Made by a program: the position numbers and the translations under genes. DNA of 32,000 bases, taken from positions 168,513-200,512 of the forward strand of contig NZ_LFVU01000004.1 of NCBI RefSeq assembly GCF_001047375.1, written 5' to 3'. Positions 4,250 to 31,439 of this stretch are shown one piece after another. The first letter of the stretch is position 1, and every line of letters starts with the position of its first letter. The notes under the pieces are model-generated. The model was not told where the DNA came from, made no database searches, and worked only from the letters and a program-made list of their open reading frames with translations. This DNA is from Clostridium cylindrosporum DSM 605 (lineage in GTDB: Bacteria > Bacillota > Clostridia > Clostridiales > Caloramatoraceae).

Positions 4250-4415
4250 ATACCCTCCATAAAAGTATTTGCTATAACCAATATATGAAGGGAGAATTTA
4301 GATTATGAATGGAAGAGTAAGCGTCTTGCAAGTAGTTAAGATTAATGTATAAATAAGACTTTTATACCTATCTGAAAAGTCATATCAAAAATCTTATCTC
4401 TAGTGTAATATTGTT

Positions 4416-4655
4416 TAAATAGGATTAGTTTCATGCGAAAACTAGGGCTATCAAAACCGATGTGCTTGAGCTGACTGCTAGATATTCTTAACGAAAGTAT
4501 TAATTTTAGCCTTAGTATGGCTGCATGTTTGAGCCTTTAGGCGAGTTTGCGCCAAACTTAGGCTAAAGTTAATACTGAGTTTTAGAATATCTGCAGGCAA
4601 TCTCACCGCATTGAGGTTTTGATAGCCCTAGTTGTAGCTTCACTTACCCTATTTA
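4416..4655 (+). repeat. Long-hairpin repeat element, copy 1 (divergent; apex on + strand)
   Basis: Perfect 19-bp outer stem AACTAGGGCTATCAAAACC (4440-4458) / GGTTTTGATAGCCCTAGTT (4615-4633). Apex GCATGTTTGAGCCTTTAGGCGAGTTTGCG at 4523-4551. Terminal motifs TAAATAGGATTAGTTTC ... CTTACCCTATTTA. Confidence 0.7.
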
Positions 4656-5431
4656 AACTTAATATGAAACTCCCAATCTCCACTTTTATAGTTTCCTGAG
4701 ACTTCATATTTTGTTACTTTACCTTCTTTATCCCTAACTGATATAACAGCTTCACTTGATGTGTTGTTATATTTTCCTGTTTTTACTTCTATACTATAAT
4801 CGAAGTTTTTAGAATCAGTTGGGAAATTTACTGATATTTTATTTGCACTTACACTGTTTAGAATACTCTTTTGGTCTACTGAGGTTATTGACCTTGTAAC
4901 TGAATAGTCCTTACCTATATCAGCTACAACCTTGCTTCCCTCTTTCATTCCATGCTTCTTTATAATTGTGCTAATAAGGGATATGTAATACTCTGGTACA
5001 TTTACTAGGTCGTTTTTCTTCATAAGTCTTTTCATGAATATGTCTTCTATACTTCTCGATATTCTGTATAGCTTTCCATTCATGTCTATAAGGTTAGCCT
5101 CACTTGAATCCGTAACCCCTGCTATATACTTAAAGTTACCAACACTTCTAGTTCCATCATATAGCTCAAATACGAAGTCAGGCTCAAGTCCTGGATCTTC
5201 CTTGGCTATTCTAGCCTTTTCTATATATCCCTTGAATCTTTCCATACTCTTTTTATCTATAATCGTATATCTTCCCGCATATCTCGCATTGGTAATTGTT
5301 ATTCTTTCTATTTGTGCATTTTGCATAGCTTTCTTGATTTCTACTGCACTACCACCACCTGAACAAGCAGAAAGTAGTATAGTAAATATTAAAATAGCTA
5401 CTATGGATATTGTTTTTTTCAATTTTCTCAC
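4649..5431 (-). CDS. Lipoprotein of unknown function, 260 aa
   Basis: Signal peptide with lipobox LLSAC followed by SGGG. The start directly abuts the stop of the upstream GNAT gene. Confidence 0.85.
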   Translation of the reverse strand: MRKLKKTISIVAILIFTILLSACSGGGSAVEIKKAMQNAQIERITITNARYAGRYTIIDKKSMERFKGYIEKARIAKEDPGLEPDFVFELYDGTRSVGNFKYIAGVTDSSEANLIDMNGKLYRISRSIEDIFMKRLMKKNDLVNVPEYYISLISTIIKKHGMKEGSKVVADIGKDYSVTRSITSVDQKSILNSVSANKISVNFPTDSKNFDYSIEVKTGKYNNTSSEAVISVRDKEGKVTKYEVSGNYKSGDWEFHIKFK

Positions 5432-9448: not shown

Positions 9449-9664
9449 ATGTAAGTATAGGGTGATGCAGTAGTTGTGTATGGGCTAAGCCAGGCGAGGT
9501 CTTCGAGAAGATCTTCTACTCTGCCTAAATGCTCCTAGACTAAGTGCGACGCAAACTCGCTTCTCTCAAACATGCTTTCTTACTAAGTCTAAGAACATTT
9601 AAACAGATAAGAAGCTCTACCTCTTGACTCTATTGACTTAGCCCCATGCACAACTACTTACAAT
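9449..9664 (-). repeat. Long-hairpin repeat element, copy 2 (apex on - strand)
   Basis: Apex complement CGCAAACTCGCTTCTCTCAAACATGC at 9550-9575. Arms GTAGTTGTGTATGGGCTAAG (from 9470) / CTTAGCCCCATGCACAACTAC (to 9657). Confidence 0.78.
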
Positions 9665-9885
9665 CAAACAAATCCTATATAACGATATTGAATTTTGTCT
9701 TTGTATATATGAAGACTTTTTAGATGGATTGGCTTTTTACTTACCCGAAGTGTTTAAAAGTAAAGCATTATCCCTAGCACTGTGAAGATGATTAAGTCTT
9801 TTAGAGCACTTATAATATTAAAAACCTGTAAGCAATAGCTTTTTAAATTTAAGCATACAAAATATCCTCTGTCTAGAATCACTGC

Positions 9886-9930
9886 CTGAAGGTCTCGTGG
9901 TTTCAGACACCAATACCACTACTGCATAGC
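9886..9930 (+). repeat. Orphan arm (half copy) of the hairpin element, abutting the rsmA stop codon
   Basis: CTGAAGGTCTCGTGGTTTCAGACACCAATACCACTACTGCA resembles the right arms of copies 2 and 4 (CTCGAAGATCTCGTCGGTTTAATCCTAGGCTACACTACTGCA). No apex is present. Confidence 0.45.
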
Positions 9931-9938
9931 AGCCTTTC

Positions 9939-10781
9939 CTACATCATCTCATATATTACATTAGAAAGCATAGCAAATTCTTGAATAGTTAGTGTTTCTC
10001 CACGTCTTTTCTCATCTATTCCTGCTGCCGCAAATGCTTCCTTTAGCTTGTCACTTGGAAGACCCACTGGCTTTAAGCTGTTTAGTAGTGTTTTACGTCT
10101 CATGTTAAATGAGTCTCTTATTATTCTGAAGAATAGCTTTTCGTCTTTTACATCTACTTCAGGTTCTTTTATGTTCATTTTAACTACCATTGATTCAACC
10201 TTTGGATTCGGTATAAAGCATGATGGTGGTGCTTTTACTACTTTCTCTACATCTGAGTAGTAGTTAGCAAGTAGAGTTAATGCACCATAGTCTTTAGTTG
10301 AAGGCTTTGCTATAAGTCTTTCAGCTACTTCTTTTTGTATCATAACTGTTATACTTTTAACTCCCTTAGCTTCCTTGAATATCTTATTAATTATAGGAGT
10401 TGTTACATAATAAGGTAGGTTGGCAACTACTTTTATGTTGTCCATTCCCTTTTCTTCAAATAGCTTGTTAAAGTCAACCTTAAGTGCATCTGAATGTACT
10501 ATTTCAACGTTATCATAACTACTTAGTGTTTCTCCAAGGATTGGGATTAATCTATCGTCTATTTCTATAGCAACTACTTTCTTACATCTGCTTGCCATTT
10601 CTTGAGTAAGGACTCCTATTCCAGGGCCTATTTCAAGTGCACATGATGTATCATCAAGTTCTGCTGAGTCTACTATTTTAGTTAGTACATTGTTATCTAC
10701 TAGGAAGTTTTGTCCTAGTGACTTTGCAAATCTAAAGTCAAAATGACTTACTATATCCTTTGTTTTTGAAGCTAAATTCAT
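9939..10781 (-). CDS. rsmA: 16S rRNA (adenine1518/1519-N6)-dimethyltransferase RsmA/KsgA
   Basis: N-terminal SLGQNFLVD, SAM motif EIGPGIGVLT, and NLPYY. 280 aa. Conserved position after rnmV. Confidence 0.95.
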   Translation of the reverse strand: MNLASKTKDIVSHFDFRFAKSLGQNFLVDNNVLTKIVDSAELDDTSCALEIGPGIGVLTQEMASRCKKVVAIEIDDRLIPILGETLSSYDNVEIVHSDALKVDFNKLFEEKGMDNIKVVANLPYYVTTPIINKIFKEAKGVKSITVMIQKEVAERLIAKPSTKDYGALTLLANYYSDVEKVVKAPPSCFIPNPKVESMVVKMNIKEPEVDVKDEKLFFRIIRDSFNMRRKTLLNSLKPVGLPSDKLKEAFAAAGIDEKRRGETLTIQEFAMLSNVIYEMM

Positions 10782-23159: not shown

Positions 23160-23395
23160 AAATAAAAAAGCCCCACCCCTAGTATCCTAGGGGCGAAGCG
23201 CCGCGTTACCACCCTAATTCATCTTAATGACCTTAAGTGCTATAACGGTGCAACCGTTTTGACCTAAACTAAATTAGATTCAGCCAAAAAGCTCAGGAGC
23301 CATCTTCCTATAATACACATTCTATCGGCTTTCACCTAACCCGACTCTCTTGAAGATACACATTATAGTACTCTTTCCTTCGTAGCTATAAACAG
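23160..23395 (-). promoter_or_regulatory. T-box riboswitch leader (methionine specifier) with terminator/antiterminator, controlling metG
   Basis: The minus strand reads ...AGAGAGUCGGGUUAGGUGAAAGCCGA... (AG box and distal loop). It continues AAUUAGGGUGGUAACGCGGCGCUUCGCCCCUAGGAUACUAGGGGUGGGGCUUUUUUAUUU (T-box sequence plus terminator). A candidate AUG specifier lies at 23301-23303. Confidence 0.85.
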
Positions 23396-27939: not shown

Positions 27940-27974
27940 AATCCCTAGTTGATGTATTCAGCTAGGGTTTTTTA
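27940..27974 (+). terminator. Intrinsic terminator after the second chemoreceptor gene
   Basis: CCCTAG (27943-27948) / CTAGGG (27962-27967) stem followed by TTTTTTAT. Confidence 0.75.
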
Positions 27975-28210
27975 TGTGAGGTTAGGTGTCTTGCAAGGAT
28001 GTGTTGTCTCCGCCTAATCCGACGAGACCTTCAAACAGATCTTCTAATATGTATAAATCTTCTTAAACTAAGTGCGGCGCAAACTCGCTTCGCTCAAACA
28101 TGCTTCCTTACTAAGTTTAATAACATTTATACATATAAGAATCTCTAGTTTTTGGCTCTATTGTTTTAGTCGCAGACAACACATCCTTGCAAAGAAACTT
28201 TCCCCACATA
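27973..28210 (-). repeat. Long-hairpin repeat element, copy 3 (apex on - strand)
   Basis: Apex complement CGCAAACTCGCTTCGCTCAAACATGC at 28078-28103. Perfect outer stem GGATGTGTTGTCT (27997-28009) / AGACAACACATCC (28174-28186). Termini TATGTGAGG ... CCCCACATA. Confidence 0.82.
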
Positions 28211-28425
28211 ACAAAACACTTGCTTTAATCACAATAAGAGATATTAGGGGGATTGGAATCTTTTATATATCTATATTTTGATGAAGTTATCGATTAAAGT
28301 ATTCGTTCTTGACTATTACTTTATGTTTTTATTTTAATAGAGTAATTTTATGAACAAGTGAAGTTCTTGTTAAATTATCATTATATTTACGCCTCTGCTA
28401 TGACACTGAAAAATAATAATCTCTT

Positions 28426-28584
28426 TTAATCACTTTTCATAACCCTACACACAGTTAAAATAATAGCTCCTATCATAGCTACTAAATATATACTTCTAGA
28501 TGCAAGTCCCATTGGATATAATGCTCCCAAAAGTATTAATAAAACCCCTAAATATGATCCATAGTCAAGGAATTTATTTTTCAT
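28426..28584 (-). CDS. Candidate small membrane protein, 52 aa (two predicted TM segments)
   Basis: Found by hand; below the ORF-track cutoff. Sequence MKNKFLDYGSYLGVLLILLGALYPMGLASRSIYLVAMIGAIILTVCRVMKSD. SD GGGGAGG 9 nt upstream of the ATG. Confidence 0.5.
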   Translation of the reverse strand: MKNKFLDYGSYLGVLLILLGALYPMGLASRSIYLVAMIGAIILTVCRVMKSD

Positions 28585-28665
28585 ATAATATTTCCTCCCC
28601 TATCTATTTTCATTCATATACATATTATACTAAAACCCTCTCTCAAAAGTGAAATTAAACATTGT

Positions 28666-28905
28666 TATATAGGGATAGTTTCTTTGCAAATAGTGTATCC
28701 TAGGGTTAAACCATAGAGGCAAGAGCTAGAAATTCTTATCCTTATAAATGCTCTAAGACTTAGTTCGGCAGCATGTTTGAGCGAAGCGAGTTTGCGTCGA
28801 TCTTAGTCTCAGAGCATTTGTGGGGATTAGAAGTTCTTCTCGAAGATCTCGTCGGTTTAATCCTAGGCTACACTACTGCAAGGCGCACCACCCTCCCAAT
28901 GTATA
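28666..28905 (+). repeat. Long-hairpin repeat element, copy 4 (apex on + strand)
   Basis: Apex GCATGTTTGAGCGAAGCGAGTTTGCG at 28771-28796. Arms CTTTGCAAATAGTGTATCCTAGGGTTAAACC / GGTTTAATCCTAGGCTACACTACTGCAAGG. Confidence 0.82.
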
Positions 28906-28937: not shown

Positions 28938-30461
28938 GTGATGTATATGAAATTAATCTTTTTATCTTTAAGAGCAGGTTCTTATATTATTGATATTATA
29001 TTTTACACAGCATGTGTATACATATTAGGAGGTTTGTCCTACTACTCTATTATTTTAAGTCTTCTTATCCTTTTTACATATAGGATTATTACAAGCTGTC
29101 TTTTAGGGGCTACTTTAGGTATGAAGGTTTTAGGACTTTCTTTAAGTAGACATGATTTTAAGACAGTTCTTAAGAGGGAACTTTATAGAATAGCTTCAAG
29201 ACCTTTTTATATAGGTTATTTATTTGCCCTAGGTGGAGACCACTCTCAATGTCTCCATGATAAGATGGCAGGTGTTAAAATCATCTATATATCTAGAAAA
29301 AAAAGGCATGATAAAAAGCCTCATGATAAGTCTATTAATGACTCTAGACTTCCCTTAAAGAAGCCCTCATCCTATATGTTGATACTAACGGTCCTACTAA
29401 CTGTACTCTCTATAGGAAACTTTACTACTAAGTTTCTTATGAATCATGTAGGTATGATTGGATTTACTAAGAAGTATACTTCAAGTGAGTATTATAACAA
29501 TCTTGATTCTGATTTAAATACTATAAAAAGCCAAGAGGGACTTTTTAAGTCAACTATAGGTATGAAGTTTACTGAAGTTATAACCATAGGCTCCCGTGAC
29601 ACCCTTATTAAAATTTCTCCTAAGGACAGTACAACTGAGGTGTATATGATGAAACCAAGGGGCAAGGATATAATCGGTGAATATTTGTACACTCTACCCT
29701 ACAAGGCTGAGTATATCGATACTGTAAGCTTAAATGGAAAAAAGCTTCTTACATACCTTACTAAGGATAAGAAGCTTCATATAGTAGATAGTTACGGCAA
29801 TATAATTCACTCTACTGATTCTAGCCTAAATACACCAATTGACCTTAAAGTAGGGATACTAAATGGCATCCAGTCAATTGTTGTTATTTGTAATAATGGT
29901 TATGCTGAAATCTTTCACATAGGTAATGATATAACTAGTGTATATAAAGGCAAAATAGGTGAAGATATATCCCCAGAACAGTTTTTAGTTGATGATTATC
30001 TATATATTCTTACAAGATCTAATCCTAAACTACTTTATAAATATAAATTTAATAACTCCATGCACTTTTTAGCAAAGAACCCTATTAGTATTGACTCTGC
30101 ATCTACCTTTGAGAAAATAAATCTTAAAGGTAAGGAATATTTTGTCTTATCAGATGTAAAAAGAGCAAACATGACCTTTAACGCTGGAAGAATTCAATTA
30201 AGTAAAATATTCACTAAAGATGGTAAGCTTAAGTATAACCTAGGCGCTAGAAGAGGTTCACTTTACACATACAAAGTAAATCAAGTTGAAAACGTTCTAG
30301 ACATAAACGGTGATGGAAAGGATGAAATTATCATTAAATCCGTTAGAAAAGGAAACGTAACAGGTGATTCCTATACTCTTAATGTATATGAACCTAATGC
30401 ATTTCTTACTGTTAATGAGGTTCTAACTAAGTTACTTAAAGTTTTTAATTATGTTATATAA
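28938..30461 (+). CDS. Membrane protein with N-terminal RDD domain, a basic linker, a further TM helix and a ~330-aa extracytoplasmic beta-rich domain ending in an FG-GAP-like Ca-binding motif
   Basis: RDD-type landmarks (R..YIIDII ... HDKMAGVKI). DINGDGKDEIII near the C-terminus. The true start is probably the ATG at 28941 or 28947, after the SD AAGGTG. Confidence 0.82.
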   Translation: MMYMKLIFLSLRAGSYIIDIIFYTACVYILGGLSYYSIILSLLILFTYRIITSCLLGATLGMKVLGLSLSRHDFKTVLKRELYRIASRPFYIGYLFALGGDHSQCLHDKMAGVKIIYISRKKRHDKKPHDKSINDSRLPLKKPSSYMLILTVLLTVLSIGNFTTKFLMNHVGMIGFTKKYTSSEYYNNLDSDLNTIKSQEGLFKSTIGMKFTEVITIGSRDTLIKISPKDSTTEVYMMKPRGKDIIGEYLYTLPYKAEYIDTVSLNGKKLLTYLTKDKKLHIVDSYGNIIHSTDSSLNTPIDLKVGILNGIQSIVVICNNGYAEIFHIGNDITSVYKGKIGEDISPEQFLVDDYLYILTRSNPKLLYKYKFNNSMHFLAKNPISIDSASTFEKINLKGKEYFVLSDVKRANMTFNAGRIQLSKIFTKDGKLKYNLGARRGSLYTYKVNQVENVLDINGDGKDEIIIKSVRKGNVTGDSYTLNVYEPNAFLTVNEVLTKLLKVFNYVI

Positions 30462-30505
30462 AAACAAAATCCGTAGAAACACTTCTTCTCCAATAAAATT
30501 ATGTT

Positions 30506-30739
30506 ATGTAAGGGAAGTTTCTCTTCTGAGATGTGTTGTCCCTTACTAAATCAATAGAGTCAAAAATTAGAGCTTCTTATCTGTTCAAATATTCATAGAT
30601 TTAGTAAGGCAGCATGTTTGAGCGAAGCGAGTTTGCGCCGCACTTAATCTATGGATGTTTGGATAGATTAGAAGCTCTATTGGAAGATCTCGTCGTTTTA
30701 GTCAGGGACAATACATCTCGAAGGACACCTTCCCACATA
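30506..30739 (+). repeat. Long-hairpin repeat element, copy 5 (apex on + strand)
   Basis: Apex GCATGTTTGAGCGAAGCGAGTTTGCG at 30612-30637. Stem GAGATGTGTTGTCCCT (30528-30543) / AGGGACAATACATCTC (30704-30719). Termini TATGTAAGGGAAG ... CTTCCCACATA. Confidence 0.85.
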
Positions 30740-30888
30740 AAAATTTTTTCTACTTTATGTATAACTCTTCTAATTATGGCTATACTAATAATACAAAGGC
30801 AATATTAAGTACTCCCTTTTACTTCTTATTGTTTTTGTAAAAATCATTTTCCCAAAATGATAGTAAAAAATTAATAAATACCCCCCAA

Positions 30889-30926: not shown

Positions 30927-31439
30927 TTATGCGAAGAAAGCATAACATATGTAAACTGTAGCAACACTTCCTAAAATATGCGCTATAAGTGCAGCTGATA
31001 GTGAGTGTCTTATTTTCTTAATTCCAAGTGCCCCAAAGTATATTGATAATGTATAGAATATTGTTTCTGTAGACCCCATTAAAACAGAGGCTATTTTCCC
31101 TTCTATTGAGTCTACTCCATATGTATTCATTATATCTGTCATAACTCCAAGTGATGCACTCCCTGATAGTGGCTTTATAATTATCATCGGAACTACCCCC
31201 TCAGGTATTCCAATAAGTTTTGCTAATGGTGCGAAAAATGATAGTAACCACTCTAGGGCTCCAGATTGTCTAAATATATCTATTGCAAATAGCATTGTTA
31301 ATAGAAATGGTGCTATCTTTACTACTGACTTGAATCCATCCTTTGCACCATCAACAAACTCTTCAAAAACCTTAACCCTTTTAAATACTGCGAAAAATAA
31401 TATACAAAGAATCATAATTGGAACTATGTACTGTGACAT
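30927..31439 (-). CDS. spmB: Spore maturation protein B
   Basis: 170-aa multi-TM protein of the nucleoside-recognition/SpmB type, directly downstream of spmA. Confidence 0.88.
   Translation of the reverse strand: MSQYIVPIMILCILFFAVFKRVKVFEEFVDGAKDGFKSVVKIAPFLLTMLFAIDIFRQSGALEWLLSFFAPLAKLIGIPEGVVPMIIIKPLSGSASLGVMTDIMNTYGVDSIEGKIASVLMGSTETIFYTLSIYFGALGIKKIRHSLSAALIAHILGSVATVYICYAFFA

Follow-up and report, generated by a model that had tools for sequence, protein, structure and literature searches.

Long hairpin elements with a conserved tip and compensating stems in Clostridium cylindrosporum and other bacteria

The subject of this analysis is a family of hairpin elements, 220-240 nt in length, found in a 32-kb stretch of the Clostridium cylindrosporum genome that is filled with housekeeping genes (the window, meaning this whole stretch). 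A profile built from the five full copies recovers all five, as proposed in the first-pass annotation, and adds a half-copy remnant at 9872-9939 (+). Each copy is a palindrome with an almost invariant tip on a stem whose two sides have changed together. Our preferred reading, which is tentative and to which we give a probability of about 0.4, is that the family is a REPIN-like or MITE-like (miniature inverted-repeat transposable element) interspersed element whose working form would be a folded single strand of DNA, served in trans by a factor encoded elsewhere. The conservation of the tip across phyla, the selection for folding of one strand and the head-to-head arrangement of neighbouring copies are features that any mechanism must explain.

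The hairpin copies, their stems and their tip

The tip is a 26-nt block, GCATGTTTGAGCGAAGCGAGTTTGCG, that had been called near-invariant. It occurs exactly at 28078-28103 (−), 28771-28796 (+) and 30612-30637 (+) and with one mismatch at 9550-9575 (−), and shuffled window sequence gave no matches to it. The equivalent place in copy 1 is occupied by GAGCCTTTAGGCGAG. Copy 5 (30504-30740, +) is a full hairpin flanked by an RDD-family gene (28938-30461, +) and a Gate-domain gene (30927-31439, −). Its tip block (30612-30637, +) is closed by GC/GC and contains the internal-loop strands ATGTTTGA (30614-30621) and GAGTTT (30629-30634), together with the mini-hairpin GCGAAGC (30622-30628), all on the + strand. 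Copies 3 (27972-28211, −) and 4 (28665 to about 28907, +) are the left and right partners of a head-to-head pair; copy 3 begins just past the terminator of a gene for a methyl-accepting chemotaxis protein (MCP), and the right end of copy 4 is degenerate, hence the approximate coordinate. Copy 2 (9456-9683, −) lies between ksgA and a DUF7922 gene and has a C12→A change in its tip. The remnant at 9872-9939 (+) is a right arm, corresponding to profile positions 174-241, that abuts the ksgA stop codon in the orientation opposite to copy 2. Copy 1 (4414-4657, +) represents a divergent subfamily with the mini-hairpin GCC-TTTA-GGC. The limits given earlier for these copies needed small corrections; those of copy 2 (9449-9664) lost about 19 nt at the left end.

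Folding of the copies is strong. For copy 5, the predicted RNA fold has an energy of −114.3 kcal/mol (z −13.0) and the DNA fold one of −53.1 kcal/mol (z −9.4). In an alignment of the five copies there are 93 consensus pairs, 47 of which have changed on both sides, compared with 22.2 +/- 3.1 in shuffles (0/500 reach 47). Moreover, 84.8% of the alignment cells are paired, versus 33-47% when partners are slid by 1-3 columns. Arm identity between window copies is merely 64-75% (45-49% for copy 1 versus the others), which, taken with these control comparisons, indicates that the stem compensation is extensive and real. The proposal of a palindrome family with a conserved tip and compensatory stems is borne out, and all of the complementary arm segments quoted with it were found in the copies.

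An excess of G:T over A:C pairs on the strand carrying the tip had also been described. The direction of this bias is confirmed, but by direct count it is weak (26 G:T versus 17 A:C in the window, and 215 versus 170 in 59 non-redundant copies). Folding energies give a clearer picture: once GAAA stands in for the tip in each strand, the tip-sense strand is the more stable one in 5/5 window copies and in 50 of the 59 non-redundant copies, with a mean difference of −5.1 kcal/mol (Wilcoxon p 2e-6), and all 17 low-GC copies favour it. For copy 5, the RNA energies of the two strands are −114.3 (tip-sense) and −93.4 kcal/mol. The masked-tip energies show that one single strand is under selection to fold. 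Covariation and strand bias fit the tip-sense strand in single-stranded form, as RNA or as DNA.

The tip had been described as unpaired, which is too simple: the GC-GAA-GC centre is a covarying helix, replaced by GCC-TTTA-GGC in copy 1 and by 32 distinct variants elsewhere. Among 272 copies, the 32 distinct mini-hairpins have stems of 2-6 bp and include GCC-GAA-GGC, GCC-GCA-GGC, GCCC-GTA-GGGC, GCCTG-TTTA-CAGGC and GCCGCC-AAA-GGCGGC. A G-N-A triloop, in which N is any of the four bases, is present in 244 of the 272 (90%), a C:G pair closes the loop in 264 (97%), and GNRA-type tetraloops are almost absent. The C-GNA-G triloop is a signature of very stable DNA mini-hairpins, while structured RNAs favour GNRA and UNCG tetraloops. 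The prevalence of GNA triloops with C:G closing pairs and the scarcity of GNRA tetraloops therefore point to DNA.

Around the mini-hairpin there is an asymmetric internal loop, also conserved, with 5'-(A/C)TGTYYGAG as its rising strand and GAGTTY-3' as its falling strand. Both Y positions of TGTYYGAG vary freely, and the closing stem just outside the loop covaries. Beneath the tip, an architecture common to all phyla follows, comprising a 5-8 bp helix, then a bulge of 3-6 nt in the 5' strand (GTAAG, GTTAA, ATCA or AAAAA), another helix of about 10 bp and a second conserved internal loop. Two further accounts of the tip were rejected. A continuous G:U helix across it would require a T7:A19 pair that the recurrent T7→C variant breaks, and a coding tip (ATG TTT GAG ...) is at odds with conservation at every nucleotide while the downstream peptide is not conserved.

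A second tip family is found in Comamonadaceae, with the form GCAGCTGTYYGAGCG-insert-GCGAGTTCTGC. The loop strands are kept and the central insert is longer, being either a hairpin or a tandem 9-mer (GTGAACGCA x2), as at loci L028 (3600-3760) and L007 (1380-1470) and many Xenophilus/Xylophilus loci. Within the conserved composite, the second-tip-family copy is always the (−) partner of a canonical (+) copy. A branched apex is seen in pNP243 of Butyrivibrio fibrisolvens (L246 2440-2660), where two extra small hairpins follow the tip motif before the long stem closes.

Distribution, orientation and conservation of the family

The exact 26-mer is present at 106 loci among 185,579 GTDB species-representative genomes, in at least five phyla. 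In Comamonadaceae it occurs in Variovorax, Hydrogenophaga, Xenophilus, Xylophilus and Rhodoferax, often in many copies per genome. Other taxa are Oxalobacteraceae, the Clostridium estertheticum group, Lachnospiraceae, Tissierellia, Alkaliphilus, Cloacimonadota, Saprospiraceae and Thermoanaerobaculia. Ralstonia megaplasmids carry 2-11 near-exact tips each on the same architecture. A variant of the tip with a 3-bp stem has at least 120 metagenome matches, human gut included, and the contig GC of this variant falls into two bands, 30-40% and 60-70%, among the matches listed; the C. cylindrosporum-subfamily pattern gave no metagenome matches. Between phyla, the centre is invariant and the element ends are not conserved. 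The arms have no common sequence between phyla, and their GC content tracks that of the host from about 25% to about 80%.

Interspersed repeats in bacteria usually keep to one lineage, but Clostridium (30% GC) and Comamonadaceae (70% GC) carry the very same 26-nt motif. An identical tip on stems that share the same architecture but no sequence implies that something conserved must read the folded nucleic acid. Though unannotated and missing from Rfam, the family is common, with members in Ralstonia solanacearum chromids, human-gut Lachnospiraceae and freshwater Comamonadaceae. It gives a tractable way to look for a new trans-acting enzyme, or for a role of DNA hairpins in the host. At a practical level, it will interrupt assemblies and give rise to spurious open reading frames (ORFs) such as MFERSEFA..., and copies could serve as typing markers. 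Drawn from the sequence alone, the first-pass view could not take in the spread across phyla, a second family of tips, the head-to-head rule or how well orthologous copies are conserved.

A viral or plasmid source was also considered and rejected. The exact tip has no matches in 2.9 million viral contigs, and apex-only matches in phage genomes are at chance level. The Firmicute-type element has no plasmid match, and the plasmid matches of the Burkholderiales-type element are chromids only. In the Enterococcus italicus plasmid pSRB3, a primase-type rep gene is preceded by GTTTGAGCGAAGCGAGTTGGCG at a distance of about 170 bp; this 22/23 match (L245 3140-3170, E = 0.1) comes without a long hairpin and is probably due to chance.

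Neighbouring copies show a strong preference of orientation. Across 226 related loci, tips less than 1.5 kb apart are arranged head-to-head, with their 5' feet facing, in 57 cases, in tandem in six and tail-to-tail in none. Collapsing similar composites leaves 20 head-to-head, 4 tandem and 0 tail-to-tail arrangements, and the rule vanishes beyond 1.5 kb spacing. In such a pair, whichever strand is followed, the active hairpin comes 3' of the segment between the two copies. A function at 3' ends, either priming of the complementary strand in DNA or formation of RNA 3' ends, would need this head-to-head layout. Two Rhodoferax pairs enclose low-GC genes, and in three ORF-enclosing pairs an element lies downstream of the ORF in the sense orientation. 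In the window, copies 3 and 4 are 68% identical, whereas copies 3 and 5 are 75% identical; the pair is therefore not a recent inverted duplication, its members not being each other's closest relatives. Its 453-bp spacer (28212-28664) carries an ORF for a 52-residue hydrophobic peptide (28426-28584, −) with two hydrophobic stretches and no Pfam match.

With respect to host genes, 33 of the solo copies that lie between co-directional genes have the sense orientation and 32 the antisense one; copies 1 and 3 of the window are antisense to their neighbours. This independence from host transcription argues against a co-transcribed RNA element. Most intergenic sites are those where the flanking genes converge or run in one direction, and few are those where they diverge (21 versus 3 for pairs, 28 versus 13 for solo copies). 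In convergent regions, the element closest to each incoming gene is antisense to that gene. A bias by GC skew or replication strand was not significant (43 versus 63 copies). A consensus scan of the left feet found no promoter, and promoter-like sites are no more frequent there than in shuffles. The sequence TG-N-TATATA at the left foot of copy 4 resembles an extended −10 box.

The terminal inverted repeats, TTAT(A/G)T(A/G)(G/A)GG ... CC..A(T/C)ATAA, pair in all five window copies. A G precedes the left foot in 5/5 copies (T[T/C/A]G), and the right end has no complementary feature. The flank similarity seen in copy 3 and in copy 5 is an extension of the palindrome and not a duplication. In the nearest relatives compared (L107-L109, 87% KsgA identity), intergenic regions of 65 bp and 73 bp stand in place of copy 2 plus the remnant and of copy 1, respectively, so that both comparable orthologous sites lack the element. 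The right end of copy 1 (4649-4657) supplies the stop codon and last codons of a YhfM-like ORF (4649-5431, −). The 3' end of this YhfM-like gene differs in relatives of the window organism.

A folded single strand and its rivals

On the reading that we prefer, the strand carrying GCATGTTTGAG would become single-stranded during replication or repair, or would extrude under supercoiling. The C-GNA-G mini-hairpin would then nucleate folding of the stem of about 100 bp, and the stem would offer a fixed platform made up of the 5'-(A/C)TGTYYGAG / GAGTTY-3' loop, the 5-8 bp helix beneath it and the 3-6 nt bulge on the 5' strand. This platform could be read by a sequence-specific factor encoded elsewhere, through which the element would be copied or moved, in many cases in the form of head-to-head dimers. 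Such a factor might be an HUH-type nuclease akin to RAYT or a conserved host enzyme that acts in priming or replication. Solely those copies with a tip and a paired stem would be propagated or retained, and such selective propagation would leave an invariant tip on arms that covary freely at host GC. The anatomy, covariation, strand bias, loop chemistry, distribution, orientation rule, presence or absence at sites and conservation of orthologous copies are shown by the data; we infer DNA as the nucleic acid, mobility of an element that is not merely ancient, and the existence of a trans-acting factor of one of these kinds. As between the two nucleic acids, we lean towards DNA over RNA, by a modest degree.

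Several observations weigh against this reading. With DNA parameters, the energy gap between the strands of copy 5 is small (−53.1 versus −49.2 kcal/mol), and the preference for DNA leans on loop chemistry described in the structural literature. The arms of the window copies differ by 25-55%, so a recent copying burst is absent. No target-site duplication was found at the ends of the five window copies, and no exact empty site defines an insertion event, the relatives compared being too diverged. Neither a cognate transposase, RAYT or IS200-type TnpA nor a recurrent neighbour gene was found in 226 loci; clustering of ORFs from 106 and then 120 loci returned merely housekeeping families or orthologous neighbourhoods, with no element-specific neighbour. 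In C. frigoris, C. frigoriphilum and C. estertheticum, orthologous copies have 80-94% three-way identity, equal to that of the flanking genes, and adjacent non-element DNA has 54-66%. This conservation points away from a purely selfish element and suggests selection in place, so that a role at the level of the host may coexist with mobility or have replaced it.

The first-pass annotation had favoured a structured RNA and offered DNA as the alternative. Covariation and strand bias leave room for RNA, and the loop chemistry and transcription-independent orientation favour DNA. We consider it doubtful that the element is a structured non-coding RNA, with a promoter for each copy on the tip-sense strand or with divergent transcription from the spacer of a pair. 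The long RNA hairpin might, for instance, sequester a protein, be a target of RNase III or stabilise the 3' end of an enclosed or upstream gene. Such an RNA would account for the wide advantage of the tip-sense fold (−114.3 versus −93.4 kcal/mol in copy 5; 50/59 copies with the tip masked), for purifying selection on orthologous copies and for the sense element downstream of the ORF in the three ORF-enclosing pairs. On the tip-sense strand only, the invariant tip can form G:U, U:G and U:A pairs, and G9-A10 and G18-A19 may flank the mini-helix like tandem sheared G:A pairs; the −10-like site at copy 4 would fit as well. It would, however, be an RNA with GNA triloops instead of GNRA or UNCG tetraloops, no Rfam match even at E up to 10, left feet with no promoter in the consensus scan and with promoter-like sites no more often than shuffles, no orientation bias relative to host genes (33 versus 32) and, in convergent regions, an antisense position relative to the incoming gene. 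An identical tip across phyla is explained most easily by a universally conserved host reader. This would suit a DNA structural element that the host has domesticated and keeps in place for its own use, either as a cruciform or hairpin site for a chromosome protein or as a signal for single-strand initiation. The single-strand origins (sso) of rolling-circle plasmids and the M13 minus-strand origin are palindromes of 150-250 nt whose unpaired motifs are read by host RNA polymerase or primase. Conservation of orthologous copies like that of genes and loops of the single-stranded-DNA type agree with domestication, as would the position of the hairpin 3' of the enclosed segment on each strand, where a priming site would have to be. 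We nevertheless regard it as unlikely in view of a patchy spread (106 loci in 185,579 species genomes) not expected of a universal reader, the absence of the tip from the 2.9 million viral contigs, the lack of plasmid matches for the Firmicute type, the lack of GC-skew bias and a tip apparently unlike the known ssoA motifs.

A likeness to MITEs had been noted previously, and the terminal inverted repeats that prompted it are present. The rest of the comparison was not supported, given no target-site duplication at five copies, no cognate transposase in 226 loci and conservation of the centre, not the ends. That the family is an ordinary MITE, an internally deleted DDE transposon moved as double-stranded DNA through its terminal inverted repeats, with the palindrome as a by-product, is highly improbable, even though the copies are intergenic and multiple and include a half-copy remnant. 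The window itself has no transposase either, and the invariant centre with ends unconserved between phyla is the reverse of a MITE. Whole-stem compensation, strand-biased folding and the head-to-head rule are likewise unexpected if the ends are recognized in double-stranded form.

A more specific form of the folded-DNA idea, which we put forward as a long shot, is that the hairpin is a priming or self-priming site at the 3' end of single-stranded DNA and that head-to-head dimers, E(−)-spacer/cargo-E(+), are chromosomal mobile cassettes. If so, either released strand would carry an active 3' hairpin for complementary-strand synthesis, an undescribed bacterial counterpart of the logic of parvovirus inverted terminal repeats (ITRs) and sso sites. 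A 3' module carried by the elements in Burkholderiales would then be a second single-stranded-DNA device of the same system. In this module a pyrimidine tract precedes a hairpin and corresponds, in parallel, to its purine arm (T with A, C with G); at least 10 different tracts do so, and 89/90 sequence variants are perfect. It has the form C-Y8-G, a 3-4 nt linker and Y9-GGCGAAGC-R9, and is found at L028 4040-4110, L247 520-570 and most Comamonadaceae/Oxalobacteraceae loci. The three-way covariation looks like that of an intramolecular pyrimidine-motif triplex, formable by RNA or DNA, which would make the module a natural triplex backed by covariation. It also stands alone, in many copies, in Ralstonia, Burkholderia and Paraburkholderia replicons.

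Known systems and the search for a partner

Rolling-circle plasmid sso sites, filamentous-phage minus-strand origins and parvovirus ITRs are imperfect palindromes of 125-250 nt that are active only as one folded DNA strand; an sso is defined by orientation-specific conversion of single-stranded plasmid DNA and by the motifs RS_B and CS-6. These palindromes have conserved unpaired or loop motifs on variable stems, are orientation-specific and lie 3' of the DNA that is copied. The logic of the element resembles that of single-strand origins and parvoviral ITRs, a resemblance by analogy only. Those are single sites of plasmids or viruses, whereas the element is a chromosomal multi-copy family with no linked Rep gene, no viral match and almost no plasmid matches outside Burkholderiales chromids.

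For comparison with REP and REPIN sequences, their properties were drawn from PMC3116915, PMC3733652 and PMC6006769. Like them, the elements are non-coding, intergenic, multi-copy imperfect palindromes with a short conserved motif on variable, covarying stems. Both prefer convergent or co-directional regions, commonly form inverted doublets and mosaic clusters, and show long vertical persistence. The presumed substrate of REP/REPIN systems, a single-stranded DNA hairpin, and their unlinked single-copy enzyme, the HUH Y1 transposase RAYT, are a further likeness to the system proposed here. On the other hand, REPs measure 20-40 nt and REPINs about 100 nt, whereas the element has 220-240 nt. Its conserved motif sits at the tip, and its feet have the sequence TTATRT... 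in place of a GTAG or CGTC tag; at least five phyla share the motif; and no RAYT is near any copy examined. The behaviour of the family is thus closest to that of REP/REPIN sequences, yet it departs from them in size, in foot tag and in the lack of a nearby RAYT.

The bacterial MITEs and palindromic repeats Correia/NEMIS, ERIC, RUP, BOX and bcr1 belong to the same 100-250 bp class, with terminal inverted repeats, long hairpins, intergenic scatter and occasional overlap of gene ends. They are confined to a genus or family and have conserved ends, whereas the element has a centre conserved across phyla, unconserved ends and no target-site duplication; these repeats are set apart here by their descriptions and, for those that Rfam covers, by the Rfam search. 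Integron attC sites and CTX-phage attP hairpins are, similarly, recombination sites made of a folded single strand in which structure is conserved and sequence is not. Unlike attC, the element has no R''/R' boxes (RYYYAAC / GTTRRRY) and no nearby integrase, and its copies have mixed orientations (+,−,−,+,+) with housekeeping genes between them in place of a co-oriented cassette array. The PATE derived from IS200/IS605 has distinct left and right subterminal hairpins without inverted ends and is inserted 3' of a fixed tetra- or pentanucleotide without duplication. In the five window copies there is no duplication, and G is invariant at −1 of the left flank; the element is, however, one global palindrome with inverted ends. 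BRE is a tandem intergenic repeat of about 90 bp, partly transcribed, in Bordetella and Comamonadaceae (PMC3110155). It resembles the element as an undocumented intergenic repeat common to these two groups but is without the tip motifs; its sequence is unrelated and the tip strings are absent from published BRE copies, so BRE was rejected as an identity for the family.

No catalogued RNA family matched the element, a check that had been named in advance. At the gathering threshold of Rfam 15, the T-box of metG is the sole match in the window. At E up to 10 the elements give just sub-threshold miRNA-like hairpin matches, and in six loci of other phyla no match falls on an element. The literature, searched by sequence string and by topic, contains no description of the element within a coverage that leaves out most subscription journals, so that a prior description is possible.

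Neither a transposase nor an integrase is among the window genes, as the first-pass annotation had stated for transposases. Searches by tblastn with IS608 TnpA and Escherichia coli RAYT, both approximate queries, gave nothing below E = 2.7 in the window, L001-L106 or L107-L110. Two candidate partners were considered and rejected. One is an HSDR_N-type nuclease annotated as a 'type IV restriction endonuclease' (L029 1720-2835, −), which lies inside a head-to-head pair and has a GC content below that of its host. Fourteen of its other loci are without the tip motif, which marks it as cargo. This nuclease has more than 2,000 homologues at at least 60% identity across phyla, mostly on contigs of 1-5 kb, and looks like a widely transferred defence-type gene. 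The other is an IS605-type TnpB element of the relatives L107 and L108, whose ends are unrelated to the hairpin family. This element (OrfB_IS605/Cas12f-like; L107 9833-11418) is present in two relatives and absent from L109 (8990-9020) and from the window.

The genes of the window are metG with its T-box leader, tatD, rnmV, ksgA, two MCP genes, the RDD-family gene and Gate-domain genes. The KsgA encoded here shares 100% identity with C. cylindrosporum KsgA. The T-box leader of metG, at 23186-23392 (−), scores 111.7 bits and is ordinary.

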